From NCBI GenBank assembly GCA_017958225.1, contig JAGDDD010000003.1, positions 8,752 through 72,751 of the forward strand: a stretch of 64,000 bases of DNA. Direction: 5' to 3'. A program made the position numbers and the translations under genes. Within the stretch, counting starts at the first letter, position 1. Each line of letters begins with the position of its first letter. Source of the stretch: Alphaproteobacteria bacterium. Its GTDB lineage: Bacteria; Pseudomonadota; Alphaproteobacteria; CAAHEQ01; UBA3637. The notes below the pieces were generated by a model, which ran no database searches, was not told the origin of the DNA, and saw only the letters and a list, made by a program, of their open reading frames with translations. Below, one piece after another: positions 11,029-57,339 of this stretch.

Positions 11029-11216
11029 ATGCACAAATCGAAGTTTTACTCAGTGACGACGAACGCCAACCGGTTGAATGCTGGACACGCGTGATGGGTT
11101 ATTTCCGTCCCGTTTCTCACTTCAACAAAGGCAAACAAAGCGAATATGCCGAACGCGTGTGGTTCACAGAAGCCAAAGCCATGGCGGCGACATCTTGTGC
11201 ATGTGCGGCTAACTGA
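11025..11216 (+). CDS. stand-alone glycyl-radical domain of class III RNR (63 aa)
   Basis: It contains TRVMGYFRPVSHFNKGKQSEYAERVWF, the canonical NrdD C-terminal glycyl-radical motif. Its ATG overlaps the nrdD TGA (ATGA). AAGGAG (11012-11017) lies 7 nt upstream. Confidence 0.8.
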   Translation: MNAQIEVLLSDDERQPVECWTRVMGYFRPVSHFNKGKQSEYAERVWFTEAKAMAATSCACAAN

Positions 11217-11923
11217 TGAACATCGGCGGTTTTGTCCCTTTTACGACTATAGATTTTCCGGATAAAATCTCAGCCGTCGTTTTTTGCCAGGGGTGCCCTT
11301 TTCGGTGCCCCTTTTGTCACAACCACTCGTTACAGGTGGTGGGTGCGCCGGGCATGGAAAACTGGTCAGATATTTTACAGGTCTTATCAAAACGTCGTAA
11401 CCTGTTGGACGGTGTTGTGTTTAGCGGGGGAGAGCCTTTGTGGCAAGACGATATTTTGGATGCAGTCAAGCAGGTCAAGGATATGGGCTTTGCGGTGGCG
11501 CTTCACACCTCGGGCGTGCGACCGGATGTGTTAAAGACGCTGTTGCCTTTTGTCGATTGGATTGGACTGGATGTCAAAGCGCCTTTGGCCAAATATGCGC
11601 AGGCGTCCGGCACGCAACCGGCCTTTAAGGCGGGCGACAAAATGTGGGAATCGTTGGCGTTGATACAGCAAGCCGGCGTGCCTTTTGAAACGCGCACAAC
11701 CACCGATCCGCGCCTGTTGTCCAAAGAGGATATTTTGCAAATGGCCGAGCAGTTGAAAGAAAAGGGCGTGCAGACCTATGTCCTGCAGGAATATCGCCCG
11801 ATTTCCGATGGCAACGGCGAGCCGAGCAGCGCTCAAATTAGTGCTTTCTATACGGACAAGGCTTTCCTGGATAAATTACAAAATCTTTTCCCGCATTTTA
11901 GTGTGCGTCGTGCGCATGAATGA
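11216..11923 (+). CDS. nrdG: anaerobic ribonucleotide reductase activating protein (radical SAM)
   Basis: 235 aa with the CxxxCxxC cluster GCPFRCPFCHN and the GGEPL motif. It overlaps the upstream stop by 1 nt. Confidence 0.9.
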   Translation: MNIGGFVPFTTIDFPDKISAVVFCQGCPFRCPFCHNHSLQVVGAPGMENWSDILQVLSKRRNLLDGVVFSGGEPLWQDDILDAVKQVKDMGFAVALHTSGVRPDVLKTLLPFVDWIGLDVKAPLAKYAQASGTQPAFKAGDKMWESLALIQQAGVPFETRTTTDPRLLSKEDILQMAEQLKEKGVQTYVLQEYRPISDGNGEPSSAQISAFYTDKAFLDKLQNLFPHFSVRRAHE

Positions 11924-12001
11924 AAAAAGTTGTTGATTTAAACGTGCATGTATGATACAGATTTGTACAGGACAAAACTTAAACAAAAAGGAGAAAAAAC
12001 A

Positions 12002-12454
12002 ATGCTCAAAAAATCACAAATCGGTCGGTCAATGATTGAAATGTTAGGCGTTCTCGCCATTATCGGTGTGCTGTCCGTGGGCGGTTTAGCCGGTTATTCA
12101 CGGGCGATGCGCGCCAACAAAATGAATAATGCTTTGGATTACATGAATCGATGCTACACAGTTGTGCGTAGTATTGGTGATGGTATGTCTGCCTTAGATG
12201 CAAATGGTGCCCCGGCAGCGTCAGCAGGCAGCATTACCTGCTCTACTTTATTGGGCGAAACAGCCCCTCAAGGCAGTAATACGGATGTTTGTAAGCGCAG
12301 AGCTGGAGGCCGAACTGGATGTGAAATAGGTTGGACTTCAGAGGCAGATTTGAATGCGATGGCGAGTAAGGTGGGCATTAGCACCCTACAGGGCTCGTAT
12401 TTTTCGTTTGATTCAAATAATATGCAATGGAGTAACGAACATCTCGGCTTCTAA
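12002..12454 (+). CDS. type IV pilin-like protein (prepilin-type N-terminus)
   Basis: The ATG at 12002 follows AAAGGAG. The N-terminus is MLKKSQIG/RSMIEMLGVLAIIGVLSVGGLAGY: a short basic leader, Gly, Glu at +5, and a helix of about 20 hydrophobic residues. The C-terminal region has 4 Cys. Confidence 0.7.
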   Translation: MLKKSQIGRSMIEMLGVLAIIGVLSVGGLAGYSRAMRANKMNNALDYMNRCYTVVRSIGDGMSALDANGAPAASAGSITCSTLLGETAPQGSNTDVCKRRAGGRTGCEIGWTSEADLNAMASKVGISTLQGSYFSFDSNNMQWSNEHLGF

Positions 12455-12462
12455 TCAACATT

Positions 12463-12488
12463 AAAGCCACCGCAAAGGTGGCTTTTTG
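12463..12488 (+). terminator. rho-independent terminator
   Basis: AAAGCCACC-GCAAA-GGTGGCTTT followed by TTT, 9 nt after the stop codon. Confidence 0.7.
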
Positions 12489-12614
12489 CACGGGCGGTAG
12501 GATTGTAAATTGCGAGGCAATTTATCCTGCGCTGAAGCTTGGACTGCCCTGCGGGCATCCGTTCGTTTCACTCACGAGCGAACATAGGTTTGTTCACCGC
12601 GCCACCATAAACAA

Positions 12615-12650
12615 CAAAAAAATCCGCCCATAAAGGACGGACTTTTTTTA
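12615..12650 (-). terminator. terminator candidate after tRNA-Asn
   Basis: The minus strand reads AAAAAAAGTCCGTCC-TTTAT-GGGCGGATTTTTTT. The stem has one mismatch and a T-run follows. Confidence 0.45.
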
Positions 12651-12651
12651 T

Positions 12652-12726
12652 TGGCTCTGGCGGTAGGATTCGAACCTACGACCGATCGGTTAACAGCCGA
12701 TAGCTCTACCGCTGAGCTACGCCAGA
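12652..12726 (-). tRNA. tRNA-Asn (GTT)
   Basis: The reverse complement folds as a cloverleaf. The acceptor stem is TCTGGCG/CGCCAGA, the anticodon loop is CTGTTAA, the T-arm is GTAGGTTCGAATCCTAC, and CCA is encoded. Confidence 0.93.
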
Positions 12727-12777
12727 ACAGAATATCAACACTTATACACACTTTTTGCGGAAAATGCAAGTGTTTTT

Positions 12778-12852
12778 TGGAGGCCGGTACCGGAATTGAA
12801 CCGATATAAAAGGATTTGCAGTCCTCTGCATAAGCCATTCTGCCAACCGGCC
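12778..12852 (-). tRNA. tRNA-Cys (GCA)
   Basis: On the reverse complement the acceptor stem is GGCCGGT/ACCGGCC, the anticodon stem-loop is GAGGA-CTGCAAA-TCCTT, the T-loop is GGTTCAATTCC, and CCA is encoded. Confidence 0.93.
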
Positions 12853-12969
12853 GCGTAGTTATCTTTTTTACCATTTTTTTTGAAAAGGTCAAGAAAAAAA
12901 TCTTTTTTTGCTAAAAAAGTTTTACTTTTTGCCAAAAATGCCCTATAACAATATTATCGCGAGGAAACA

Positions 12970-14331
12970 ATGTTGATACGAAAAATAATCGCCTATACAG
13001 TGTTAGGCCTGTGGGCCGCCGGAGCCAGTGCTACCACTTTGTTTGATGAGCTGGCTTATACCTATGCGACCAGCCCTATATTAGACGCACAACGCGCTTA
13101 TTTGCGTGCGGCTGATGAACGCGTCGGACAGGCGAAAGCCGGTTGGCGCCCTATGATTTCTGCGGAAGGTAACGCTGCGCACATCGGTCAAAAATACAAA
13201 AATTATCCCAATACGGAAAACTTTGATTATGACAACACCAGTTATGACGCGGGCCTCGTGGTTTCTCAACAGATTTTTTCCGGCTTTCAGACCGTTGCCA
13301 GTGTGAATTATGCCAAGACGGTCGTGTTGGAAGAAAGAGAGAAAATGCAGGCCACGGAACAGGATGTTTTATTGACTGCCGCGGTGGCTTATGCCGATGT
13401 TATCCGCGATCGTGCCTTGCTTGATTTGCAAGTCAATCAAGAGCAAGTGTTGGCGCGGCATTTGAAATCTTATCAAAAACGCTTCAAAGTCGGCGATTTG
13501 ACCCGCACAGATGTGGCGCAGGCCGAAGCGCGTTTGTCAGGGGCGAAAACCGCGCGCACCATAGCGCAAGGTAACCTGGAAAGTTCGATTGCTGTTTATG
13601 AAAATGTGGTCGGTCGCAAGCCGAACGACATTGCTAAAATCGATCACTTGGATGACCTGTTGCCCAAAGATTTTGATGCGGCGGTGCGCTTGATGGAAGA
13701 AAACAACCCGAACTTGAAGGCGGCTCAATATGCCGAACAGGCGGCCAAATATCAAATCACGCGTCAAGAAAGCGACTTGTTGCCCAAAGTGGATGTGTCC
13801 GCCGGTGCCGGTTACCAATGGGGACAGCCTTTGCCGGCCTTGGATGATAAATATGACGGGCAATATTGGCGTGTCGGTGCGCGTTTGTCTGTGCCTTTGT
13901 ATCAGGGCGGTGGCGAATATGCCCGTGTGCGTGAGGCAAAACAATTGGCCAATCAAGCCACTATTTTGTTAGAACAAACAAAACGTCAGTTGTTGCAGGA
14001 TACTACGCAAGCTTGGGAATTGTGGCAATCTTCCAAAGCTTCTATTGTGTCAATGCAGGCGCAAATCAAGGCGGCTAAAATGGCCTTGGACGGCGTGATT
14101 AAAGAGGCTAATGTCGGCTCTAGAACGGTGCTGGATGTGTTGGACGCCGAACAGGAACATCTGAACTATCAGGTCAATCTGGTAATTGCGGAACGTAACG
14201 AAATGGTGGCGGCGATGAGTTTGTTGTCATCGACGGGGCAAATGACGGCGGCCGGCCTAGGCTTGAAAGTGGATGCCTATGATCCGGAAGAATATTACGA
14301 CGATGTGAACGACAAGTGGATTGGATTGTAA
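12970..14331 (+). CDS. tolC: TolC-family outer membrane efflux/type I secretion protein
   Basis: 453 aa with a signal peptide (LGLWAAGASA). It shows the two-repeat OEP architecture and typical blocks (AQRAYLRAADE..., DVAQAEARLSGA, VLDVLDAEQE). Confidence 0.88.
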   Translation: MLIRKIIAYTVLGLWAAGASATTLFDELAYTYATSPILDAQRAYLRAADERVGQAKAGWRPMISAEGNAAHIGQKYKNYPNTENFDYDNTSYDAGLVVSQQIFSGFQTVASVNYAKTVVLEEREKMQATEQDVLLTAAVAYADVIRDRALLDLQVNQEQVLARHLKSYQKRFKVGDLTRTDVAQAEARLSGAKTARTIAQGNLESSIAVYENVVGRKPNDIAKIDHLDDLLPKDFDAAVRLMEENNPNLKAAQYAEQAAKYQITRQESDLLPKVDVSAGAGYQWGQPLPALDDKYDGQYWRVGARLSVPLYQGGGEYARVREAKQLANQATILLEQTKRQLLQDTTQAWELWQSSKASIVSMQAQIKAAKMALDGVIKEANVGSRTVLDVLDAEQEHLNYQVNLVIAERNEMVAAMSLLSSTGQMTAAGLGLKVDAYDPEEYYDDVNDKWIGL

Positions 14332-14332
14332 G

Positions 14333-14818
14333 ATGATTGAGCAGCAACCCTCTATGGATGAAATCTTAGCCTCTATTCGACGCATCTTGTCGCCGGAAGA
14401 AGCAGACGCTCAAGCGGGACAGCAGCCGCCTGTGGTTGAATTGACCGAGGATATGTGCGTTCCTTCCGAAGCGCCGGCCGCCGAAATGGTTGAGCCTGTG
14501 GCAGAAGATGTGGCGCCTGCGATAGCCGAGCCGGAGCCTGCTGTGTTGCCGGATGATGTCACGGCGTTAGATTTGCCCGAGCACATTACCTTTACCGAAG
14601 ATGAGTTCTTCAAACAAGAGCCTGTGGCCGACAAGACCTATGCTGCCCCTGTGGAAGAGCCTCCGTCTTGCGATGTATCGTCGCCGGCGGATTCTGTTTT
14701 GTTGGCGGTGTTGCGACCCTTGTTGCGTGAGTGGCTGGATAAGAATATGCCCCGTTTATTAGAACGTTGTATCCAGCAAGAATTGAAGAAGGAACGCCAT
14801 GGCTCGTCGTCTTTCTGA
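14333..14818 (+). CDS. DUF2497 / PopZ-like protein
   Basis: The N-terminal block is SMDEILASIRRILSPEE. An acidic Pro/Ala/Glu-rich linker follows. The C-terminal block is LLAVLRPLLREWLDKNMPRLLERCIQQELKK. The ATG at 14333 lies 1 nt after the tolC stop. Confidence 0.65.
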   Translation: MIEQQPSMDEILASIRRILSPEEADAQAGQQPPVVELTEDMCVPSEAPAAEMVEPVAEDVAPAIAEPEPAVLPDDVTALDLPEHITFTEDEFFKQEPVADKTYAAPVEEPPSCDVSSPADSVLLAVLRPLLREWLDKNMPRLLERCIQQELKKERHGSSSF

Positions 14819-15800
14819 TTTTGAAAAGCGTTTGTTGCGCAAAGCTGCGGCGGCCAAGAAAACAATCGTTTTGGCCGAAGGAGAATCGATTCGTGTGTTG
14901 AAAGCTGCCGAATATTTGGGCGCGCATCGTATCGTCTCGGTCATTGTGTTGGGCAGTAAAAAAGTTATTCGCGCGTTGGCGAAAAAAAACAAGATTGCTT
15001 TGGACCATATTGCGATTGTGGAGCCCGAAACCGACAAGCGTTTTGCTGACTATGTCCAAACATTATATGACCTGCGCAAAGACAAAGGTTGGACTAAAAA
15101 GCAAGCGACAGACGCGATGAAAGATGTGTCCTATTTCGGCACGATGATGGTGTATAAAAAGGATGCGGATGGTATGGTCTCCGGTGCCGAACACACGACC
15201 GCGCACACTATTCGGCCGGCGTTACAGTTTATCAAGCCGCGTGCGCCTTTTCAGTTCGTGTCCGGCTCGTTTATTTTGAACTTTCAGAAAAAGATTTGGG
15301 TGTTTGCTGATTGTGGCGTGATGCCTCAGCCGACACCGGATCAATTGGCGGATATTGCGCAAATGACAGCACAAACAGCCCAATTGATTGGCTTAAAACC
15401 GCGTGTGGCCTTTTTATCTTATGCGACGGGTTCTTCTGCCGAAGGGCCTTGCGTAGATTTTGTGCGGACAGCGGTGGCGTTGGCTCGGAAGAAATATCCG
15501 CAATTGGTTGTGGACGGGCCGATGCAGTTTGATGCGGCGGTAAATAAGGAAACCGGCGAACGCAAGTTGCCGGACAGCCCTGTTGCTGGTCGTGCCAATG
15601 TATTTGTTTTCCCTGATTTGAACGCGGGCAATTGTTGTTATAAAGCAGTCCAGCAGTCGGCAAAAGATTGTTTGGCCTTGGGCCCCTTGTTGCAGGGATT
15701 GAAAAAACCGGTCAATGATTTATCGCGAGGCGCTACCATACCGGATATTATAGATACCGTCGCCTTTACAGCATTAAGTGCGACACAGATGAAGGAGTAA
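14799..15800 (+). CDS. pta: phosphate acetyltransferase (short form)
   Basis: 333 aa. TIVLAEGESIRVLKAAEYL, VSGAEHTTAHTIRPAL and the C-terminal NDLSRGATIPDI are typical of the PTA_PTB family. It lies directly upstream of ackA. Confidence 0.9.
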   Translation: MARRLSDFEKRLLRKAAAAKKTIVLAEGESIRVLKAAEYLGAHRIVSVIVLGSKKVIRALAKKNKIALDHIAIVEPETDKRFADYVQTLYDLRKDKGWTKKQATDAMKDVSYFGTMMVYKKDADGMVSGAEHTTAHTIRPALQFIKPRAPFQFVSGSFILNFQKKIWVFADCGVMPQPTPDQLADIAQMTAQTAQLIGLKPRVAFLSYATGSSAEGPCVDFVRTAVALARKKYPQLVVDGPMQFDAAVNKETGERKLPDSPVAGRANVFVFPDLNAGNCCYKAVQQSAKDCLALGPLLQGLKKPVNDLSRGATIPDIIDTVAFTALSATQMKE

Positions 15801-15804
15801 TTTT

Positions 15805-17010
15805 ATGAAAATATTGGTTATCAATTGTGGCAGTTCTACCATTAAATATCAGTTGTTTGAAATGGACGGACAAAAGGTGTTGTGCAGCGGTTCTGCCGAA
15901 CGTATCGGTTTGCCGCAGGGCATTTTGACACACAAAAAATATCCGGGCACAGAGGCGCAAACAAAGTCCGTTTTTGATGAGCCGTTTAAAACACACGCCG
16001 ATGCGATGCAGCGTATTGTGCAGTTGATGCTGACAGGCGAAACGGCCGTTATTTCTGATGTGGCCGAAATCAAGGGCGTCGGACATCGTATTGTCCATGG
16101 CGGCTCGTTGTCTTCTACCGTTGAAGCGACCCCCGATGTGATAGAGACGGTCCGCAAATATATTCCCTTTGCGCCGATTCACAATCCGGCCTGTATTATG
16201 GGTATTGAAGTGGCGATGAAGTTTTTCCCGCAAGCCAAGCATGTGTGCGTGTTTGATACCGCCTTTCATCAGACCATGCCGCCGGAAGCGTTTGTCTATC
16301 CTGTGCCTTATGAGTGGTATGAAGAAAAAGGGGTGCGTAAGTATGGTTTCCATGGCACCAATCACAAGTATGTGACGCAACGCGTGGCCGCCTTGATGAA
16401 CAAGCCGGTTTCTGAGTGCAATTTCATCAGTTGCCATATCGGCTCCGGTGCTAGCATGGCCGCCATTAGAAATGGTAAGAGCATAGACACAACCATGGGT
16501 ATGACGCCTTTGGCGGGCCTGATGATGGGCACACGCTGCGGCGATATAGATGTGTCTGTCTTGGGCTTTTTAATGCGCAACACCAACTTGACGGCCGAAG
16601 ATATCGATACCATTTTGAACAAGCAAAGTGGCTTGACCGGTATTTGCGGTAAAAGCGATTTGCGCGATGTCCATGCACAGATCCAGGCGGGTGACGAAAA
16701 AGCGAAGTTGGCCTTGGATATGTTCGTGTATAGAATTAAAAGTTTTATCGGTGCTTACCTGGTCCAGTTAGGGCGTGTGGATGCGCTGATTTTTACCGCC
16801 GGCGTTGGTTTGAACGATTCCATCGTGCGCGCACGCGTGTTGGAAGGGTTAGAGCCTTTCGGCTTTATCTTGGATAAGCAGGCCAATGAAGAACGCGGTT
16901 ATGAACATAAAGTCATTTCTACAGACGCGTCCCCGATTAAAATCTATGTCGTGGAAGCCAATGAAGAATTGGCGATTGCACAAGAAACTCAACAATTACT
17001 TTCAAAATAG
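15805..17010 (+). CDS. ackA: acetate kinase
   Basis: 401 aa. MKILVINCGSSTIKYQLF, GHRIVHGG, FDTAFHQTMP, YGFHGTNHKY and GICGKSDLRD are classic AckA motifs. Confidence 0.96.
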   Translation: MKILVINCGSSTIKYQLFEMDGQKVLCSGSAERIGLPQGILTHKKYPGTEAQTKSVFDEPFKTHADAMQRIVQLMLTGETAVISDVAEIKGVGHRIVHGGSLSSTVEATPDVIETVRKYIPFAPIHNPACIMGIEVAMKFFPQAKHVCVFDTAFHQTMPPEAFVYPVPYEWYEEKGVRKYGFHGTNHKYVTQRVAALMNKPVSECNFISCHIGSGASMAAIRNGKSIDTTMGMTPLAGLMMGTRCGDIDVSVLGFLMRNTNLTAEDIDTILNKQSGLTGICGKSDLRDVHAQIQAGDEKAKLALDMFVYRIKSFIGAYLVQLGRVDALIFTAGVGLNDSIVRARVLEGLEPFGFILDKQANEERGYEHKVISTDASPIKIYVVEANEELAIAQETQQLLSK

Positions 17011-29415: not shown

Positions 29416-31062
29416 ATGACGAGATATATTTTTATTTTAGGTGGTGTGGTTTCCTCGCTGGGGAAGGGCATTGCCTCTGCCGCTATAGGCTCTTTGCTGC
29501 AAATGCGCGGTTATAAAGTGCGTATGCGCAAAATGGATCCGTATTTGAATATTGACCCGGGCACGATGTCTCCTTACCAGCACGGGGAAGTCTTTGTCAC
29601 CGATGATGGTGCGGAAACCGATTTGGATTTAGGGCATTATGAGCGCTTTGTCGGCGTGTCCTGTCATAAAACGGACAGCGTCTCCGGCGGTAAGATTTAC
29701 TATAATGTGCTGAACAAAGAAAGGCATGGCGATTATTTGGGCGCAACAGTCCAGATGATTCCGCATGTAACGGATGAACTCAAACTCTTTTTGGATTCGG
29801 ATATCACGGATGAAGACTTTGTGTTGTATGAAGTCGGTGGCACAGTGGGCGATATTGAAGGCACTTTATTTTTGGAAGCGATTCGCCAGTATGCCAATGA
29901 AAAAGGACATGACAAGTGCTGTTTCGTGTATCTGACTTTGTTGCCCTATATCGAGACGGCCGGCGAATTGAAAACCAAGCCGACGCAACAGGCAGTCAAG
30001 CGCTTGCTGGAAGCCGGTATTCAAGCCGATATTTTGTTGTGCCGCTCCCGTCAGGCTATCAGTCCGGAAGAAAGGCGCAAACTGGGCCTGTTCTGCAACG
30101 TGGCGCAAGAAGATGTGATTGCCGCGTTGGATGTGAAAAACATTTACGAGATTCCTTTGGCCTATCATAAAGAAGGCCTGGATGTTCAAGTCTTGAAGCA
30201 TTTCAATATGTTGGACACCGCGCCACAACCCGACCTGCAAAAATGGGAAAAAGTGCTGGATGTCATGAATCATTTTGAGCGTGAGGTCGATATCGCCATT
30301 GTGGGTAAATACTGTGGCTTGCCCGATGCTTACAAGTCTTTGCGTGAAGCCTTGGTCCATGGCGGTTTTAAGCACAAAGCCAAAGTCAATATGACCTGGA
30401 TCAACAGTGAAGAATTGGAGTGTATGTCCGATGAGCAAGTGGCGGCAAAACTGTGGCCTTTTGACGCGGTCTTGGTGCCTGGCGGCTTTGGCTCACGCGG
30501 GATAGAGGGCAAGATTAAAGCCATCCATTACGCCCGCACACAGCAAGTGCCTTTCTTTGGTATTTGTTTGGGTATGCAAACCGCGGTAATTGAAATTGCC
30601 CGTCATGTGCTGGGCATTGCCGACGCCAATTCGTCCGAATTTGACAAGCAAGGCACGCACATTATCAATCGTATGACGGTCTGGGAGCAAGACGGTAAAA
30701 AGATGATACGGCCGGAAGACGGTGATTTAGGTGGCACTATGCGCTTGGGCGCGTATCCTTGTGTCTTGAAAGACGGCTCACTGGCTCAAAAAGTCTATGG
30801 GGGCGCCAAAGAGATTGCCGAAAGACATCGGCACCGCTATGAAATGGATATCTCTTACGAAAAAGCCCTGCAAGAAAAAGGTGTGATTATCTCGGGAAAA
30901 TCGCCTGATGGGTTGTTGCCGGAGATTGTGGAAATACCGGAACATCCGTTCTTTATTGCCGGGCAGTTCCATCCGGAGTTTAAGTCAAAACCGTTTGCAC
31001 CTCATCCTTTGTTTGAAGGCTTTATAGAGGCGGCTTTGGGTTATCGGTCGCGACGCGGATAA
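29416..31062 (+). CDS. pyrG: CTP synthase
   Basis: 548 aa. [11 protein letters not shown], the KTKPTQ motif and the GATase triad region (GICLGMQ, HRHRYE) are present. Confidence 0.97.
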
Positions 31063-31946
31063 CGGGTGTTGTCCAAGAATAATTGAATCTGTTGTTGCGC
31101 TACCTGTCGTTCATCAGGTGTCATTTGCTGGGCTAAATCGTTGAGCTCCGGCGCATTTTGCTCCAAGTTGGTTTGGTGCGGAAAAGCAAACTCAACAGAC
31201 AGATATAACCATACATACGCGGTAATCAGCGCCGCACGATCTTCTTGCGAGCGAATCAGATAAATCTCATATAGTTTGCGTTGCGCAATCGGGTCGTCCT
31301 GTTCGGCGGCCTGGGTATACCATTTGATGGCTAAATCTTCGCGCGCTGGTGTGCCTTGCCCTGTATAATACATAAAGCCCAGGGCACGCATAGCCGGCAA
31401 GTTGCCTTGTTGAGCCGATTGGTAATACCAGGCGAGTGCTTTTTTATCATTTTTGGGTAATTTGCCGTTTTGATACAGAGTGCCCAGTTGATATTGACTT
31501 TCGCTGTCGCCCATTTGCGCTGATTTACGCAACCATTCAATTTCCCAAGCTTCATCTGTGGTAACGGGGGCGTCCAGTTTATATACCGGCATCGTTTTCA
31601 GTTTGGCAATTTCTTGTTCGGCTTGTTTATCGCCTTGAGCGGCGGCCTTTTTATACCAATATTCTGCGTGATAGACATCTTGTGCAATCAAAGGGCGACC
31701 GTATTGGTAAATCTTACCCAACGCAAACTGAGCTTCCATATAGCCCTGTTGTGCCGCTTTGGTCAGCCAGGCTACGATATCTCGGTAATCGGCATTGGGT
31801 TGCGCGCGCAGGTATTCTGCCCATTGAAATTGGGCTTGGCTTTGTCCGTCAAGAGCTTGCTGATAAATCTGTTCCGGTGTTGCCGCATGCGCGCAGATGC
31901 TTATCAGGGATAAACAGCCGACAACAAAGACAAGGTTAAATCGCAT
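31041..31946 (-). CDS. secreted Sel1-like repeat (SLR/TPR-like) protein
   Basis: 301 aa with a signal peptide ([10 protein letters not shown]). It has at least 5 Sel1 repeats ([60 protein letters not shown] and others). Its 3' end overlaps the pyrG 3' end by 22 nt, convergently. Confidence 0.85.
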
Positions 31947-34908: not shown

Positions 34909-34937
34909 TTGACAACGGGCAACAAGGCTATGATAAT
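34909..34937 (+). promoter_or_regulatory. sigma70-like promoter candidate for the giant pilin-like gene
   Basis: TTGACA (34909-34914), a 17-nt spacer, then GATAAT (34932-34937). AAGAGG lies 7 nt before the ATG at 34958. Confidence 0.45.
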
Positions 34938-34957
34938 GACACACAAGAGGTTTGCGC

Positions 34958-37900
34958 ATGAAAATATTGAAAACACAACTGGGTTCTATGATTTTGGAGC
35001 AACTGGCGATTTTGGCGCTTGCGGGTGTGATGACGGTCGGCGGTGTGTATATTTATTCGGAAGTGTCCGCGCGTTTTCAGGCGGACAGCATTAAATCAGA
35101 GGCGCTGTTGCGTGCGACCAGTATTTTGAGCAGCTCGCGCTTTAGCAAAGCTGATGTGGGCGACACGATTTTAGCCAGTGAGTTCAAGCGCCCCGCCACG
35201 CCGGTCAGTTTTACGCAGAAAAAGCACAGTGAGGCGTTGATTGTGGTGTCCGCTTCGCAAATGCGCAAAAAGGTGTGCGAAAAGTTGCGCGACGCGCCTA
35301 TGGACAAAGATTTGCTTTCTATTTATATCAACTGCCCGAATCAAGAGGTGTCGAACTGTCGGTCTGTGGCGCAAGGCGGCGGCACTTGCCAAGACAACCA
35401 CAATAACACGGTCAGTTTCTTGATCGGCAAACTGAAAGGGCGCACCATCGGGGATCAACCTAATGATCAATGCCCGGACGAAGACAGACCGCTTTGCTAT
35501 ACGGTCGAATCCTACACGTATACGCCCGAAGGTGGCGAACCCATTACTTGCTATCATTATGAAGAAAAGTGCGTTGCTCCGTCGGTGTGCCGGCCGAACA
35601 ATACATGCGGATGCGACGAAGGCTATCGTTGGGATGCGGAGCAAGGATGTGTGGAAAGCGGTTGTTCTGCACCGACACCTTATCACAACGGGTCGGGCTG
35701 CGTGCAGTGTTTAGAGGACGCGGATTGTCCATCGGGGAGCGGACAGGTGTGTCAGTCCAACGGGTTCTGCGCTCCGGGTTGCGCGATGGATTTTAGTGAG
35801 CCCTGTGCGTCATGTTCTAATCCGCAAACACCGTATTTTAACGGGGGCTCCTGTGTCTGTCATGAGGACAGTTGCGGCGTCGGTTATGTATGCTCCGGAG
35901 GACGTTGTGTGGAAAAATGCGATTCTAAGTGTGAGGCGTATTTGAATAGCCATACAGACAGTTGTTGCCAGGGTTATTTTTGCGATACGGGCACCAGCAC
36001 CTCTATGATTGGTAAGTCATCCGAGGCGGGTACATGCAATCCAGTCAGATACAATATCAGCGGTCATTGGGCATGTTCTAAAACCGGGAACATGAACTGG
36101 TATGATGCGCAGGCTTTTTGCAACAAGTTAGATGCGCAGGTGCCGAATGCCGGTTTAGTTCATGACAATTTAGAAGCGGCCAGAACAGCGTGCGGTGATT
36201 TGGCGTCTGTTTGGTTGTCAGAAACCGGCATTTCAGACAAGTTGGGTTGGTATGCCGATTTAGGCGGTGATGCGACTGCGCGCGTGCAAACATTGTCAGC
36301 TTCATCAGCGGCTATGCACGCTTTGTGTTATCGTGAAGCAGAAGATCCTTATGCAGAGTGTTTAGAGGGGGCGCCTTGCGAGGATGGGCGAACCTGTATC
36401 AACGGCTTGTGTAATTGTGCCGTCAATGCGTATTGGGACGGGAACGGTTGTGTTGAGTGTCCTGTGGGCTGGAATCCTATTTATACCAACGGACATTATA
36501 CTTGCGGATGCGCGGATAATACCAAGTGTTGCGGAGTGGGCGAAAAGGTTGTGGTGGATGTCGGCAGCGGAGATACTTCTTGCGAGCCTTGTGCGCTCGG
36601 TTTTGAGCCGGACTCTGCCAAAACAGCGTGCCAGGCGTGTAACGCGAACTTTACACAAACATGTGCGACCTGCACCGATCCGGAAAAACCGTATTGGGAT
36701 GGCAGTCAATGTGTCAAGTCGGTCAATTGCACCGGCGATGATGAGTGCACGGGCAATGAAGTATGTGTTACCGCATCGGGTAAATGCTCATCTTGTTTAA
36801 GCGGAACATGGCGTAACAGCGATTGCGGCGGCAGCCCTTGCACCAGCGGCCAACATTGTGCTTTAACAGGGCTGAATAAGTGGGGTTGGATGACAGGCCT
36901 ATATTGTTCGGGCGAAGGTGCCGGCTCGGGTGGTGGCCGTTCGGTTGATGTCGTGATAGGTTCAAAGCAATACACTTATACTTATTACAATAAAGGACGG
37001 CACTCGTGGTTTGAATCTTATAATATATGTGAGGCGATAGGCGGATCTATACCATCAGCATCTGAAATATCTCAAAACTATCAAGCGATTGCGCAAGCAT
37101 TAGGCACTGTGGCGTATGTATGGTCGGGGGATGCCTTCTTTAATGAAAGCGATCAGATTTGTAAAGCACAAATTGTGTCGTTGAATACCGGAGATACCAG
37201 CACAGCAGGGGCGACCGGCAGTTATTTGACGATTTGTCGTATGGCTAAAGCCCACGAGGAGTGTAAATACAGCGGCGAATATTGCCGGACATCCGGCGAT
37301 TGTTGCACCGGCTCTGTGTGTATGAGCCAACTGTGCGAACCTTGTCCGGCGAATACGTATCGTTCGGATAATCAATGCTTGATGTGCGTTGAAGGATCAA
37401 CCGCATTGGAAGGGTCGGATGAATGCACCTGCGCGGCCGGCTCGGTGTGGGATAAAGGAACGAATACCTGTGCGCAATGCGAGGCCAATACCTATCAATC
37501 CGGGCAGGAATGTTTGCCATGCGAAAACGGCTCAACCGCGGTGGCCGGTTCCACCAAATGCGCCTGTGCCGACGGTTATTATTGGGATGAGGAAGAAAAT
37601 GCTTGTTATCAATGTACCAATGAAAATGCGGCCGATAAATGCACAGGCGTGCGTTGCACAACACAAGAACATTGTGGTGGTGTCGGCAGTAATATGTTCT
37701 GCGACAACGCCAGTAAAAGCAGCAATCGTGTCCGATATGGTTATTGTGCGGCGACGGGAACTTTGGCGGTTCCTTCTTACAGTTCTTCACGCGATCAGAC
37801 GGCCGTTAATAATGGTATCGGCCCCGCGTTGTTAGGCAGTAAGGCGGCTGCTGATGCTATTTTGGGCGGACATTTTGTGGTGTCTGCCGATAAAATGAAA

Positions 37901-39271
37901 ATGGGGTCGGGGACTGCCTGGTGCGAAGCCTTTGGCCTGACGTTGGCAACAAAAGCACAATTAGGCAATCCGACATACGGTTGGGATGTTTATGCCGTGA
38001 ATTGTGAGCAAGACGAACAAGGTAACAATATCGGTTGTCCCATTGTTCATGCCTTGGGCAGTTTGTATAGCTATACCCATGTGATTAATCATCATCCTAA
38101 TAGTAGTTGGCACAGTTGGATGATATTGTATGCCAATGGGCGAATTCGTTACGATTTCAGTGAAACAACAGGTTATTCAACACATGCTTTATGTTATCGC
38201 GAAAGCGGAGATTCAGCTGGGGCAGGCTGTTTGACGCATGCCGATTGCGGCTCGGGCTTGTTCTGTAAGTATCCTACCCCATCAGATAACTGTTCGGAAA
38301 TTCCGGATGTTTCCGGAACCTGCAGCCCGATTGGGTCTCGTGAGGAACATAAAATCCCGGGTTGGGGCACCCTTTACAGAAGTAAAAACACGATGAATTA
38401 TTGGTCGGCCAAAGATTGGTGTGCTGCCCAAGGCGATAGTTTGGCCGATTTGGAAGGCAATCCTATGCAGTGTTATCGTTCCGGATATGGTTATTCTTCG
38501 GGCACATGGTCGGGTTATTGTTGCCGGTCAAGTGCCAGTTGCACAACGGCAGCAGATACACAAAGTCCCATTATGCAGGAAATGCGTCGCGCTTTTTCAT
38601 CTGCCGGTTCAACGGCCTTTTGGTCGGCCAGAAAACTTTCGGCTACCTCTTGTCAGCAATGGATGCCCCGTATGTCAGACGGTTATATGTGCACGACTTA
38701 TGTCCGAACGAACAATTATTACGCCTTATGTATGAAAGAACGAGATAGCACTTGCCAAACGCACAATGATTGTGCCTCGGGTCAGTATTGTCGTTATGAA
38801 ACCCCGGCAGAGGCTTGTTCCAGAACAACACCCAGCGTAGGTCATTGTCGAGATATTGAAGAAAAACTTGTCCGAACCGTGAACGAATTGGGCCGCGTTA
38901 CTCGTGGGTGGGTGGCTATGAATTATTGGTCGGCTAAAGATTGGTGTGAAGCCCAAGGTTTGCGCTTGCTGACGGGAACTGAATTACAATGTCGCGGATA
39001 CAACACGAACGATTTGCTGGATTTAAGCAATCAGGCAACCGGTTATTGCCGAAAGCCAAAAACAACATATGGAACATTGGATCATTTAAGTGTGCCGGCG
39101 CGCGGCCTGTTGACATCGGAAACAGGGTTTGGCGGACTAGGGTCTGACCAATATGTCATGTGGACAAGCACACAGTATGACCTATGTAACAATTACGGTC
39201 TTAATGGTAGCGGACAAATGGTGGCCAAAGAGTTGAGCAGTCCGCAATATCCAACCTGTGTGGCACCATAA
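34958..39271 (+). CDS. giant (1,437 aa) cysteine-rich modular protein with a type IV pilin-like N-terminus and five DUF1566/C-type-lectin-like modules
   Basis: The N-terminus is MKILKTQLG/SMILEQLAILALAGVMTVGG, with Gly, Glu at +5 and a hydrophobic helix. I counted about 117 Cys by hand. There are repeated Cys-rich units (C..PY[FWH][ND]G..CV.C..D..C..G..C, and C.[PQ]C.ANTY.S...C..C..GSTA). Five modules show W-x2-A-x2-[FIW]C...[AT][LI]C[YMR][RMK]. A single uninterrupted ORF has promoter and SD signals. Confidence 0.85.
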   Translation: MKILKTQLGSMILEQLAILALAGVMTVGGVYIYSEVSARFQADSIKSEALLRATSILSSSRFSKADVGDTILASEFKRPATPVSFTQKKHSEALIVVSASQMRKKVCEKLRDAPMDKDLLSIYINCPNQEVSNCRSVAQGGGTCQDNHNNTVSFLIGKLKGRTIGDQPNDQCPDEDRPLCYTVESYTYTPEGGEPITCYHYEEKCVAPSVCRPNNTCGCDEGYRWDAEQGCVESGCSAPTPYHNGSGCVQCLEDADCPSGSGQVCQSNGFCAPGCAMDFSEPCASCSNPQTPYFNGGSCVCHEDSCGVGYVCSGGRCVEKCDSKCEAYLNSHTDSCCQGYFCDTGTSTSMIGKSSEAGTCNPVRYNISGHWACSKTGNMNWYDAQAFCNKLDAQVPNAGLVHDNLEAARTACGDLASVWLSETGISDKLGWYADLGGDATARVQTLSASSAAMHALCYREAEDPYAECLEGAPCEDGRTCINGLCNCAVNAYWDGNGCVECPVGWNPIYTNGHYTCGCADNTKCCGVGEKVVVDVGSGDTSCEPCALGFEPDSAKTACQACNANFTQTCATCTDPEKPYWDGSQCVKSVNCTGDDECTGNEVCVTASGKCSSCLSGTWRNSDCGGSPCTSGQHCALTGLNKWGWMTGLYCSGEGAGSGGGRSVDVVIGSKQYTYTYYNKGRHSWFESYNICEAIGGSIPSASEISQNYQAIAQALGTVAYVWSGDAFFNESDQICKAQIVSLNTGDTSTAGATGSYLTICRMAKAHEECKYSGEYCRTSGDCCTGSVCMSQLCEPCPANTYRSDNQCLMCVEGSTALEGSDECTCAAGSVWDKGTNTCAQCEANTYQSGQECLPCENGSTAVAGSTKCACADGYYWDEEENACYQCTNENAADKCTGVRCTTQEHCGGVGSNMFCDNASKSSNRVRYGYCAATGTLAVPSYSSSRDQTAVNNGIGPALLGSKAAADAILGGHFVVSADKMKMGSGTAWCEAFGLTLATKAQLGNPTYGWDVYAVNCEQDEQGNNIGCPIVHALGSLYSYTHVINHHPNSSWHSWMILYANGRIRYDFSETTGYSTHALCYRESGDSAGAGCLTHADCGSGLFCKYPTPSDNCSEIPDVSGTCSPIGSREEHKIPGWGTLYRSKNTMNYWSAKDWCAAQGDSLADLEGNPMQCYRSGYGYSSGTWSGYCCRSSASCTTAADTQSPIMQEMRRAFSSAGSTAFWSARKLSATSCQQWMPRMSDGYMCTTYVRTNNYYALCMKERDSTCQTHNDCASGQYCRYETPAEACSRTTPSVGHCRDIEEKLVRTVNELGRVTRGWVAMNYWSAKDWCEAQGLRLLTGTELQCRGYNTNDLLDLSNQATGYCRKPKTTYGTLDHLSVPARGLLTSETGFGGLGSDQYVMWTSTQYDLCNNYGLNGSGQMVAKELSSPQYPTCVAP
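38225..39268 (+). repeat. tandem duplication of a module of about 175 codons inside the giant gene
   Basis: Both units follow the pattern C.TH.DC.SG..C.Y.TP...CS......G.C, about 25 aa, then MNYWSAKDWC[AE]AQG. The nt segments 38393-38434 and 38918-38959 match at 38 of 42 positions and lie 525 nt apart. Confidence 0.6.
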
Positions 39272-39280
39272 AAGGAATAA

Positions 39281-40024
39281 ATGATGAAGAAAATACTTTG
39301 TTTGTTGTTGGTTTTGAGTTTGTGTTCGTGTGCGGCTAAGCGTGAAAAAATCGCCGATCAAAGCGCCGAGCAACTTTACAATACCGCCTACAACTATGCC
39401 GAAGAGGGCGATTACAAAAAAGCCGCCACCTATTTTGACGAGGTGGAACGCCAACACCCGTATTCGCCTTGGGCCACGCGCGCGCAGATTATGGAAGCTT
39501 ATACCTATTACGAACATAACCGCTATAGCGACGCGGTCAATACCTTGGATCGCTTTTTGTCGTTGCATCCCGGGCACAAAGATGCCCCCTATGCCCTGTA
39601 TCTGAAAGGGATGTGCTATTATGAGCAAATCTCTGACGTGCAGCGCGATCAAGATATGTCTGCGCAAGCCGAAACCACTTTTCACCGCCTGATTATGCTG
39701 TATCCGGAAACGGACTATGCCAAAGACGCGCTCAACAAGTTGCGCCTGACCCGCAACAATATCGCCGGCAAGGAAATGCAAATCGGGCGCTATTATCAGC
39801 AACGGGGGCGTTACGGTGCGGCACTCAATCGCTTTTCCGATGTCGTGCGTAATTATCAGACCTCTATGCATATTCAAGAGGCGTTGTATCGCTTGACCGA
39901 GTGCTATATCGCGTTGGGTATGTTGCCCGAAGCCAAGCGCGCGGCGGCAGTGTTGGGGCATAACTATCCGTCGTCTGAGTGGTATGCCAAAGCCTATGCG
40001 CTGTGTAAGGCGCACGGAGTATAG
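39281..40024 (+). CDS. bamD: outer membrane protein assembly factor BamD
   Basis: 247 aa with the lipobox LSLCSC. The TPR-like repeats are typical of BamD/YfiO (LYNTAYNYAEEGDYKKAATYFDEV, YALYLKGMCYYEQ). It starts 9 nt after the giant gene. Confidence 0.88.
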   Translation: MMKKILCLLLVLSLCSCAAKREKIADQSAEQLYNTAYNYAEEGDYKKAATYFDEVERQHPYSPWATRAQIMEAYTYYEHNRYSDAVNTLDRFLSLHPGHKDAPYALYLKGMCYYEQISDVQRDQDMSAQAETTFHRLIMLYPETDYAKDALNKLRLTRNNIAGKEMQIGRYYQQRGRYGAALNRFSDVVRNYQTSMHIQEALYRLTECYIALGMLPEAKRAAAVLGHNYPSSEWYAKAYALCKAHGV

Positions 40025-57252: not shown

Positions 57253-57339
57253 TGGTGCCCAGAAGAGGACTCGAACCTCCATGCTCTTGCGAACGCTAGC
57301 ACCTGAAGCTAGTGCGTCTACCAATTCCGCCATCTGGGC
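57253..57339 (-). tRNA. tRNA-Leu (CAG)
   Basis: On the reverse complement the acceptor stem is GCCCAGA/TCTGGGC and the anticodon stem-loop is CTAGC-TTCAGGT-GCTAG. A long variable arm and the T-arm GGAGGTTCGAGTCCTCT are present. CCA is encoded. Confidence 0.93.

Follow-up and report, generated by a model that had tools for sequence, protein, structure and literature searches.

Introduction

In their catalogue of modular pilins, Raynaud et al. (2021, PMC8179133) counted more than 1,200 proteins with 264 architectures and a maximum size of 860 aa, and the dataset lists the combination of a pilin and a C-type lectin domain (IPR001304) in 3 proteins and that of a pilin and an Lcl-C/DUF1566 domain (IPR011460) in 7 proteins, with 2 more proteins carrying the latter domain in double (PMC8179133). 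A pilin with a lectin or Lcl-C part is therefore of a kind already known. Modular pilins and adhesive tip pilins are established biology (PMC8179133; PMC9045228), and PilV of the R64/TP114 thin pili (PMC9045228) offers an analogue for a tip pilin. Here, a stretch of 64,000 nt from contig JAGDDD010000003.1 (assembly GCA_017958225.1, positions 8,752 to 72,751 of the forward strand; hereafter the window) was analyzed, in which the gene at 34958..39271 on the plus strand encodes a giant modular pilin-like protein of 1,437 aa with 117 Cys (MBP5160487.1, ILP11_00315). The protein is labelled 'hypothetical protein' in GenBank, and its source is a metagenome-assembled genome (MAG) deposited as 'Alphaproteobacteria bacterium'. 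On the evidence below, we consider it fairly probable that the product is a giant modular type IV pilin, which would be incorporated by a type IVb machine and would likely serve as a multivalent adhesin at the tip.

The layout resembled that of Streptococcus sanguinis PilB (von Willebrand factor A domain, vWA) and PilC (lectin), in which an N-terminal pilin likewise carries C-terminal adhesion modules, and the family described here contains members with a vWA domain (P0128) or with a single lectin-fold module. With a pilin domain at aa 1-165 and modules of the C-type lectin-like domain (CTLD) fold, the protein falls within the modular-pilin definition of Raynaud et al. (2021). It differed from the pilins of that survey in size, since none of those exceeded 860 aa and the giant protein and a second one have 1,437 and 1,654 aa, and in having five modules, about 700 aa of disulfide-rich spacers and a diderm alphaproteobacterial source. 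Both the pilin motif and the modules escape InterPro-type signatures, so the giant protein would be invisible to a survey of this type.

Type IVb pili that carry a large minor pilin whose C-terminal part is adhesive, as proposed here, are exemplified by those with PilV (R64/TP114), TcpB (Vibrio cholerae) and CofB (enterotoxigenic Escherichia coli), three proteins of about 420-520 aa. The giant protein differed from these three in its 9-aa leader, in the Ser or Arg at position +1 of its family and in the location of its gene outside a pilus operon; compared with PilV of R64, no shufflon was shown here and the tip location is a proposed one. The machinery found in related contigs shared with the R64 type IVb pilus the order pilO-(P)-Q-R-S and pilins of the PilS/Bundlin type, and TcpA could be aligned to the profile of the N-terminal domain through the head. 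New here were the scale of 1,437 and 1,654 aa with five modules, the disulfide-rich stalks, a compact CTLD module without signature, the Arg or Ser at +1, and, among uncultured gut-associated bacteria, a large family without annotation.

The N-terminal pilin domain

A class III signal layout had been proposed in the initial annotation, which was made from the sequence alone, and all of its elements were present. The N-terminus MKILKTQLG, followed by SMILEQLAILALAGVMTVGG, consisted of a short basic leader peptide ending in Gly-1 (aa 1-9, 34958..34984, plus strand) with a predicted prepilin-peptidase site after Gly9, and then of the hydrophobic alpha1-N segment SMILEQLAILALAGVMTVGGVYIY (aa 10-33, 34985..35056, plus strand), in which Glu+5 was E14 (nt 34997-34999). 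The hydropathy peak spanned aa 7-34. The type IV pilin domain predicted at aa 1-165 (34958..35452, plus strand) was complete, with an alpha1 helix, a four-stranded sheet, Cys107 and Cys144. In the AlphaFold2 (AF2) model of this domain, a helix of 50 residues (aa 8-57) and four strands were seen, with a predicted local distance difference test score (pLDDT) of 68.7 and a predicted template modelling score (pTM) of 0.66.

Gly9 was invariant in three alignments (A1, A4 and A7), E14 was invariant as well, and Gly-1, Glu+5 and the hydrophobic helix were kept in the giant protein, in its orthologue from a sister species and in a paralogue of 25% identity. The residues between Gly and Glu were shifted in the giant protein relative to the family (G|SMILE vs G|RSMxE), and yet the spacing was kept, which indicated constraint on exactly those two positions. 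The N-terminus of the paralogue (P0003) passed the curated prepilin cutoff of TIGR02532 (21.3 vs 16.3 bits), and the sole curated-model match of the giant protein's own N-terminus was PRK10506 (E 0.18).

An alignment of 25 N-domain sequences from the family (A7) was used as a profile against the PDB. The top 14 matches were all solved type IV pilins (E 2e-5 to 0.03), including PilE, PAK pilin, geopilin, CofA and TcpA, with PpdD, PilS and MshA further down. TcpA, a type IVb pilin, was aligned through the head domain and onto the conserved Cys of '...VC..L'. When the N-domain family was compared by hhalign with PilS-like pilins that are linked to pilus machinery, a probability of 99.7% was obtained (E 4.7e-26, 144 columns), and the match covered the whole domain, with both C107 and C144 aligned. 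No match to Pfam PilS (PF08805) or Bundlin (PF05307) was given by the giant protein itself. Its leader of 9 aa was type IVa-like, against about 15-30 aa in the type IVb subclass, and the non-Phe residue Ser at +1 was as type IVb expects. By the profile comparisons, residues 1-165 were thus shown to be an entire pilin domain, which belongs to a type IVb-like family related to PilS and TcpA, and the earlier pilin reading of the N-terminus was extended from the signal to the whole domain, homologous to machinery-linked type IVb-like pilins.

C-type lectin-like modules

The approximately 1,270 residues past the pilin domain were shown to consist of disulfide-rich spacers and of four clear CTLD-like modules and one divergent module. 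A module profile gave strong matches (E 1e-20 to 1e-30) at aa 361-460, 664-762, 1127-1261 and 1302-1436, and a weak one (E ~1e-3) at aa 974-1082; of the five shared modules claimed at first, four were thus clear and the one at aa 974-1082 stayed weak. The profile was built from modules that included the four strong ones, and its scores locate them without being independent evidence; because the modules of the giant protein are rows of the alignment, the independent matches are those in about 35 other family members. Module 1 (aa 361-460, 36038..36337, plus strand) was of type A, with a module hidden Markov model (HMM) E value of 5e-29 and CTLDs among its matches in the PDB profile search. Module 2 (aa 664-762, 36947..37243, plus strand), also of type A, was the one modelled by AF2. 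The divergent, probable module 3 (aa 974-1082, 37877..38203, plus strand; HMM E ~1e-3) was aligned with type B in alignment A3. Modules 4 (aa 1127-1261, 38336..38740, plus strand) and 5 (aa 1302-1436, 38861..39265, plus strand, C-terminal) were of type B. Type A modules are short, and type B modules are longer, with a Cys-rich insertion after alpha1; the two types were homologous by hhalign (89% probability, E 2e-6).

That the modules have a lectin-like fold, as suggested earlier, was upheld both by sequence profiles and by structure prediction. All 18 PDB matches of the type A profile, with E values between 0.002 and the cutoff of 10 set for the search, were of the CTLD fold, among them DEC-205, mannose receptor, Endo180, PLA2R, NKG2D and FGE. 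The AF2 model of module 2, for which 13 paralogous modules served as alignment, reached a pLDDT of 89.5 and a pTM of 0.81. The top 50 PDB matches of this model in Foldseek were all C-type lectin or lectin-like domains, including the bacterial Bd2740 C-terminal domain; the best was the fourth carbohydrate-recognition domain (CRD4) of the mannose receptor (E 2.3e-5, TM-score 0.75), and the identity of module 2 to the animal CTLDs was only 9-20%. Across the 13 modules, only two columns were invariant, the Cys that follows W-x2-A-x3 and the one at the C-terminus, and this pair would correspond to the disulfide between alpha1 and the last strand of CTLDs.

Compared with the compact forms of the CTLD superfamily (mannose-receptor CRD4, snake-venom CTL-like proteins, LOX-1 and Bdellovibrio Bd2740), the modules shared the fold (TM-score 0.61-0.75), the W-x2-A-x3-C in alpha1, the Cys of the C-terminal strand and the W in the strand equivalent to WIGL. 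They differed in their length of about 85-135 aa, in the absence of the long loop, of EPN/QPD and of WND, and in the Cys-rich insertion of type B. The modules are too short for a long loop, the EPN, QPD and WND motifs were absent from all of them, and the only related tripeptide in the giant protein was the EPD at aa 550, which lies in a spacer. With these motifs and the long loop missing, sugar binding was not indicated, and the 'glycan-binding' function first assigned to the protein was left unsupported. No module matched Pfam Lectin_C (PF00059) or DUF1566/Lcl-C (PF07603) at E <= 10, and the membership in these two families that had been suggested did not hold with the Pfam models. A canonical Ca2+-dependent sugar-binding lectin was rejected on the missing sugar motifs, long loop and PF00059 match. 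Because the long loop, the sugar motifs and the matches to Lectin_C and DUF1566 are all lacking, the modules are therefore regarded as a new compact CTLD-fold family, the ligand of which is not predictable.

Cys-rich spacers

Three copies of the repeat C..P..PY[FWH][ND]G..CV had been reported, and they were found again at aa 236, 286 and 572. Two of them, C..P..PY[HF]NG..CV.C, lie at aa 236 and 286 in spacer 1 (aa 171-360, 35468..36037, plus strand); spacer 2 (aa 461-663, 36338..36946, plus strand) contains the PYWDG repeat at aa 572 and a four-Cys knot just before module 2. Such four-Cys knots precede most modules, as at aa 1091-1122 before module 4 and aa 1266-1297 before module 5. In spacer 3 (aa 763-973, 37244..37876, plus strand), CxxC repeats resembling those of the tumour necrosis factor receptor (TNFR) and of ephrin receptors were located at about aa 796-886, with sub-gathering Pfam matches to RANK_CRD_2 (E 3.9e-5) and Ephrin_rec_like (E 0.0019). 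The latter model (GCC2_GCC3/Ephrin_rec_like, PF07699), matched over aa 765-930, scored 18.4 bits against a gathering cutoff of 23.1 bits, and the units earlier called GCC2/GCC3-like could not be retained under that name. On the Pfam models, membership in DUF1566, Lectin_C or GCC2_GCC3 was rejected.

The regular CxxC...C spacing of TNFR, ephrin-receptor-like, furin-like and Myxo_Cys_RPT repeats is likewise seen at aa 796-886, but the matches of the giant protein to all of them were below the curated cutoffs, and its dominant spacer motif, C..P..PY[FWH][ND]G..CV.C, is specific to the pilin-like family. The Cys motifs recurred in other members of this family, the motif of spacer 1 being repeated many times in a member of 1,120 aa (L015), and the few members with a source name were alphaproteobacterial. 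The term 'eukaryote-like', by which the Cys repeats had first been described, was accordingly reduced to a resemblance, the full-length relatives among 5.8 billion proteins being the orthologue and the paralogue.

The resemblance could also be read as descent, in which case the protein would be a secreted effector or mimic derived from a eukaryote (C-type lectin plus EGF/TNFR-like), acquired horizontally and delivered by a type IV secretion system (T4SS). In favour of this, animal CTLDs are the structures that the module matches best, TNFR, ephrin-receptor and Dickkopf-like models were matched weakly, and the window holds a VirD4-like coupling protein together with ankyrin, pentapeptide and Sel1 proteins. 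However, no eukaryotic homologue was found among 5.8 billion proteins, the animal CTLDs are only 9-20% identical, the same Cys motifs and modules are carried by other pilin-like family members, and the N-terminus is a pilin domain. The 117 Cys also suit an oxidising extracytoplasmic location and not the reducing host cytosol. Such an origin is highly improbable, and recent eukaryotic horizontal transfer and a T4SS effector were rejected on the lack of a eukaryotic homologue, the 9-20% identity, the pilin domain and the family-wide motifs.

Gene integrity and conservation

The gene starts with ATG, with an alternative in-frame TTG at 34952. A ribosome-binding site (AAGAGG, 34945-34950, plus strand) was present 7 nt 5' of the ATG, and about 20 nt 5' of the start codon a sigma-70-like promoter (TTGACA-17-GATAAT, 34909..34937, plus strand) was recognized, solely by an 11/12 consensus match; the promoter of its own that had been ascribed to the gene thus has a near-consensus candidate. 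The Cys share of the protein was 8.1%, the commonest residues were Gly, Ser, Ala, Cys and Thr, and the computed number of 117 Cys was exactly that of the earlier hand count. The distance of 9 nt to bamD was likewise confirmed, with the stop of the giant gene at 39271 and the ATG of bamD (YfiO/TPR, 39281..40024, plus strand) at 39281. No terminator-like site was found between the two, and the giant gene and bamD are probably co-transcribed, judging from this arrangement.

The open reading frame (ORF) could in principle be an assembly artefact or a decaying pseudogene, given that it comes from a metagenome-assembled genome and that the protein is repetitive and without database domains. Against this, the protein or the same contig was recovered from independent assemblies of different samples with 99.97-99.995% DNA identity, the protein being identical or nearly so. 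A sister species (81-86% DNA identity) contained an intact orthologue, 63% identical and syntenic between yajC and bamD, in which 116 of the 117 Cys were kept. The dN/dS against this orthologue was 0.136 (about 0.14), an approximate ratio because dS was saturated. The internal DNA repeats were short only, and since the longest was 41 nt, misassembly is unlikely. These findings make an artefact or pseudogene barely credible, and this explanation was ruled out by the independent assemblies, the orthologue, the dN/dS, the Cys retention and the short repeats. The giant gene is under purifying selection.

Conservation was graded along the protein. The N-domain was the best-conserved part against the sister-species orthologue (81% identity, dN/dS 0.07), and the identity dropped to 37% in module 4 and 32% in module 5. 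In this comparison of two sequences, the two distal modules were shown to evolve much faster than the remaining protein.

Relatives and the pilin-domain family

With the full-length protein, no Pfam match was obtained at E <= 1, the NCBIfam scan gave a single sub-threshold Cys-repeat match (TIGR04201, Myxo_Cys_RPT) in spacer 1, and the PDB sequence search gave none. Among 5.8 billion proteins, three full-length matches were found, which were the protein itself, the orthologue and a protein of 1,654 aa with 25% identity (P0003). The latter, from the same sample, is one residue off MBP5161034.1 (ILP11_03195) and is therefore a paralogue within the same deposited MAG. No further full-length relative was found in 185,579 GTDB species genomes or in JGI metagenomes, and a search of the 5.8 billion proteins with the module alignment gave no match. 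A SecD query against the GTDB genomes returned only distant matches from Kiritimatiellales and Verrucomicrobiaceae, none of them from a close genome; the lineage is thus sparsely represented.

The locus of the 1,654-aa paralogue is unrelated to the bamD region and adjoins a prophage-like module. On its contig (L002 14966-24433), the gene directly after the paralogue encodes an S24 (LexA/CI-like) peptidase and is accompanied by a phage head module with a head-tail connector and a T7-like capsid, so that a prophage or phage remnant abuts it.

The pilin domain was far more widespread than the full-length protein. An exhaustive HMMER search with aa 1-175 against 1.84 billion representatives gave 1,153 matches at E <= 1e-3, of which 29 had E <= 1e-10; the matches reached profile positions ~112-165, well past the helix, and match lengths were 32-1,654 aa. 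The G-x4-E and the hydrophobic stretch were found in 147 of 151 members, and Arg occupied +1 in 138 of these 147. The median leader length was 13 including the Gly, compared with 9 in the giant protein. In about 35 of 148 representatives (300-600 aa), the N-domain was combined with one homologous lectin-like module, and versions of about 315 aa with this combination occurred three per contig in L085 and L096. Large size and high Cys content were also common, with 32 of 151 members reaching 500 aa or more and 38 of 151 combining a length of 400 aa or more with a Cys share of 7% or higher.

The closest non-orthologous match (P0128, 1,251 aa, 11% Cys) carried a Pfam vWA domain. A member of 1,120 aa (L015 1988-5350, plus strand) had the pilin N-domain, many '..PTTYWNGSACVCP..' repeats and 'C..C.NRFWR' repeats at the C-terminus; its 'LVDRSGS' stretch looks vWA-like, although no part of this member matched a Pfam model. 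Most of the cargo in the family was without a Pfam match. The protein, first described as of a type not recognised, is not a one-off but the extreme member of a large unannotated family. This family was shown to be abundant in uncultured gut-associated bacteria, alphaproteobacterial where a source is named.

Small pilin and pilus machinery

A regular-expression scan of the ORFs revealed a second pilin gene of the same family in the window (12002..12454, plus strand; MBP5160464.1), encoding a small pilin of 150 aa that begins with MLKKSQIG, then RSMIEMLGVLAIIGVLSVGG, with Arg at +1. The statement that no pil, gsp or tad machinery lies in the 64 kb was accurate for the scanned ORFs, all of 150 aa or more, but this pilin gene had been overlooked. 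The gene has a strong ribosome-binding site and, past the stop, a hairpin followed by a T-run (terminator hairpin), and it is located between nrdG and two tRNA genes, tRNA-Asn(GTT) and tRNA-Cys(GCA), which lie just downstream at 12652-12852 on the minus strand. A total of 3,919 homologues were found. The N-terminal 30 residues were essentially invariant in 26 members and the rest varied, as in major pilins, and the small pilin is by this pattern a candidate major pilin. At least 2 more small pilin paralogues, in tandem, were present in the same MAG.

A metagenome scan with the small-pilin alignment gave at least 521 confirmed family loci among the 600 matches listed, some of them on contigs labelled as human gut metagenome. 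In 2 of 80 loci (L037 and L039, on contigs of 110 kb and 249 kb), family pilins were linked to machinery, in the order PAP_PilO (PF06864), an unidentified ORF, T2SSE, T2SSF and four tandem pilins. The T2SSE ATPase was matched at E 8e-70 and the T2SSF platform at E 2e-25, and the pilins passed the Pfam gathering scores for both PilS and Bundlin. We take this gene order to be that of pilO-P-Q-R-S in the type IVb thin-pilus operons of R64 and Salmonella Typhi. Directly past the four pilins, a tyrosine recombinase of the phage-integrase family with a SAM-like N-terminus was observed in both contigs (L039 7105-8079, minus strand; L037 8259-9233, minus strand), which could be XerC/D or a pilin-variation recombinase like Rci of the shufflon.

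The same machinery allowed another assignment to be weighed, in which the giant protein would belong to a pseudopilus like that of type II secretion, or to some other type IV filament of short length, and would form a surface-anchored stalk on a short periplasmic stub. The small family member is named 'type II secretion system protein' in its NCBI annotation, weak N-terminal matches to GspH and PpdB models were obtained, and the machinery linked so far comprises PilO, one ATPase and the platform, with no retraction ATPase. On the other side, the linked pilins pass the PilS and Bundlin gathering scores, PilO (PF06864) precedes the ATPase in the order of the R64 thin pilus, none of GspC, GspL, GspM and GspD was seen, and four tandem paralogues resembling major pilins are unlike the layout of a type II secretion system. 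A pseudopilus subunit is thus quite improbable.

Proposed function

In the favoured reading, a giant modular type IV pilin, the alpha1-N helix would insert the protein into the inner membrane, the prepilin peptidase would cleave it after Gly9, and oxidative folding would follow in the periplasm. Via its pilin domain, the protein would then be incorporated by a type IVb machine that comprises PilO, ATPase, platform and secretin. Because of its bulk, it would most likely be a minor pilin that initiates the pilus and stays at the tip, like PilV, TcpB and CofB, on a shaft that may be built of small family pilins such as the one encoded at 12002..12454. The Cys-rich stalk could act as a rigid, protease-resistant spacer in the gut that holds the lectin-fold modules off the cell, and the distal, fast-evolving modules would provide multivalent adhesion to a ligand on the host, mucus or another cell that is not necessarily a sugar. 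By analogy with the known tip pilins, the giant protein is probably a pilus-displayed adhesin.

Several observations weigh against this assignment. The Ser at +1, where most family members have Arg, is unusual. The N-terminus of the giant protein gave no match to TIGR02532 or PF07963 at E <= 10, and Foldseek with the N-domain model (pLDDT 68.7) returned no pilin and no significant PDB match; as this search gave only noise, the pilin assignment rests on sequence profiles. The sugar-binding motifs and the long-loop region are missing from the modules, as described above. No A24 prepilin peptidase, secretin or ATPase was found among the window ORFs of at least 150 aa that were scanned, and the contexts of 8 small-pilin homologues were without adjoining machinery, the pilin genes of the family lying mostly among housekeeping genes. 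The link to machinery was shown in two related metagenome contigs and not in this genome. Motif scans for the GspE/PilB Walker A, the A24 GxGD and secretin motifs over about 1.0 Mb of related DNA detected no A24 peptidase or secretin, the matches being only the ATPases of L037 and L039 and one implausible GxGD match. Four further loci (L100-L103) were without pilus machinery in precomputed Pfam tables. Finally, a disulfide-rich subunit of 1,437 aa must cross the outer-membrane secretin, a passage that is not known for anything of this size.

Some of these points would equally be accounted for if the N-terminus were an uncleaved signal anchor of vestigial pilin ancestry, in which case the protein would stay tethered to the inner membrane or end up free in the periplasm and would never join a filament. 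The window without peptidase or machinery, the sub-threshold scores of the N-terminus in curated prepilin models, the head domain not recognized by Foldseek, and the position of the gene among envelope-biogenesis genes (yajC-secDF, bamD) all agree with this. A mere anchor, however, fits poorly with the spacing from Gly-1 to Glu+5, kept though the intervening residues depart from the family consensus, with the low dN/dS of 0.07 in the most conserved N-domain, and with a whole head, both Cys included, that is conserved in the machinery-linked pilins as well. A long stalk with five lectin-fold modules is implausible inside the periplasm, and the unrelated locus of the paralogue shows that the family is not tied to the bamD neighbourhood. 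We therefore regard a signal anchor as unlikely.

Starting again from the modular pilin, a broader system can be sketched, possible but on balance doubtful, in which the giant protein would belong to an undescribed surface system of uncultured gut-associated bacteria, alphaproteobacterial where named. Here a type IVb-like pilus of small pilins with Arg at +1 would be capped by alternative tip pilins encoded at scattered places in the genome, of about 300 to more than 1,600 aa, each bearing a cargo of its own on a protease-resistant disulfide stalk, be it one lectin-fold module or several, a vWA domain or novel Cys repeats. If this were true, the repertoire of tip pilins would be the gene-repertoire equivalent of the PilV shufflon, switching the specificity for host or partner, and the giant proteins would act as fibres of about 50-100 nm themselves.

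Through modular pilins, simple type IV filaments acquire new functions, and the giant protein far exceeds the 860 aa of the largest catalogued. The 1,153 representatives with its pilin domain point to a large hidden pool of adhesins, hidden because standard signatures miss both the pilin motif and the modules. Members of the family come from anaerobes of human and animal guts that are uncultured and almost unknown in their biology, and the giant pilins are the most obvious candidates for attachment to mucus, host cells or other microbes. The compact bacterial CTLD-like module and the profile of the pilin domain could become database models.

Neighbouring genes

Downstream of the giant gene, the longest recN ORF overlapped bamD by 41 nt (39984-40024). 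In sister contigs recN was called with a later start, giving 554 aa, and the gene therefore probably begins immediately past bamD.

Strict-anaerobe markers, NrdDG and Pta-AckA, were located at 8971-17010, and the related loci L009-L011 and L015 added pyruvate:ferredoxin oxidoreductase in the same MAG and a bifurcating-type Fe-hydrogenase in relatives; an anaerobe would thus produce a protein with up to 58 disulfides. Between nrdD and nrdG, at about 11025-11216 on the plus strand (L006 9024-9215), a separate ORF of 63 aa with a Pfam match to the glycyl-radical region of NrdD was found, perhaps a C-terminus that has been split off, or else a glycyl-radical peptide of the 'spare part' kind.

A gene for a VirD4-like T4SS coupling protein, then genes for pentapeptide-repeat and ankyrin-repeat proteins, occupied 57395-61435 on the minus strand, and a Sel1-repeat protein was encoded beside secF (31041-31946, minus strand). 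The VirD4-like, pentapeptide, ankyrin and Sel1 set is an effector-like repertoire of host association. Just downstream of the VirD4-like gene, a tRNA-Leu(CAG) gene was located on the minus strand (57253-57339).

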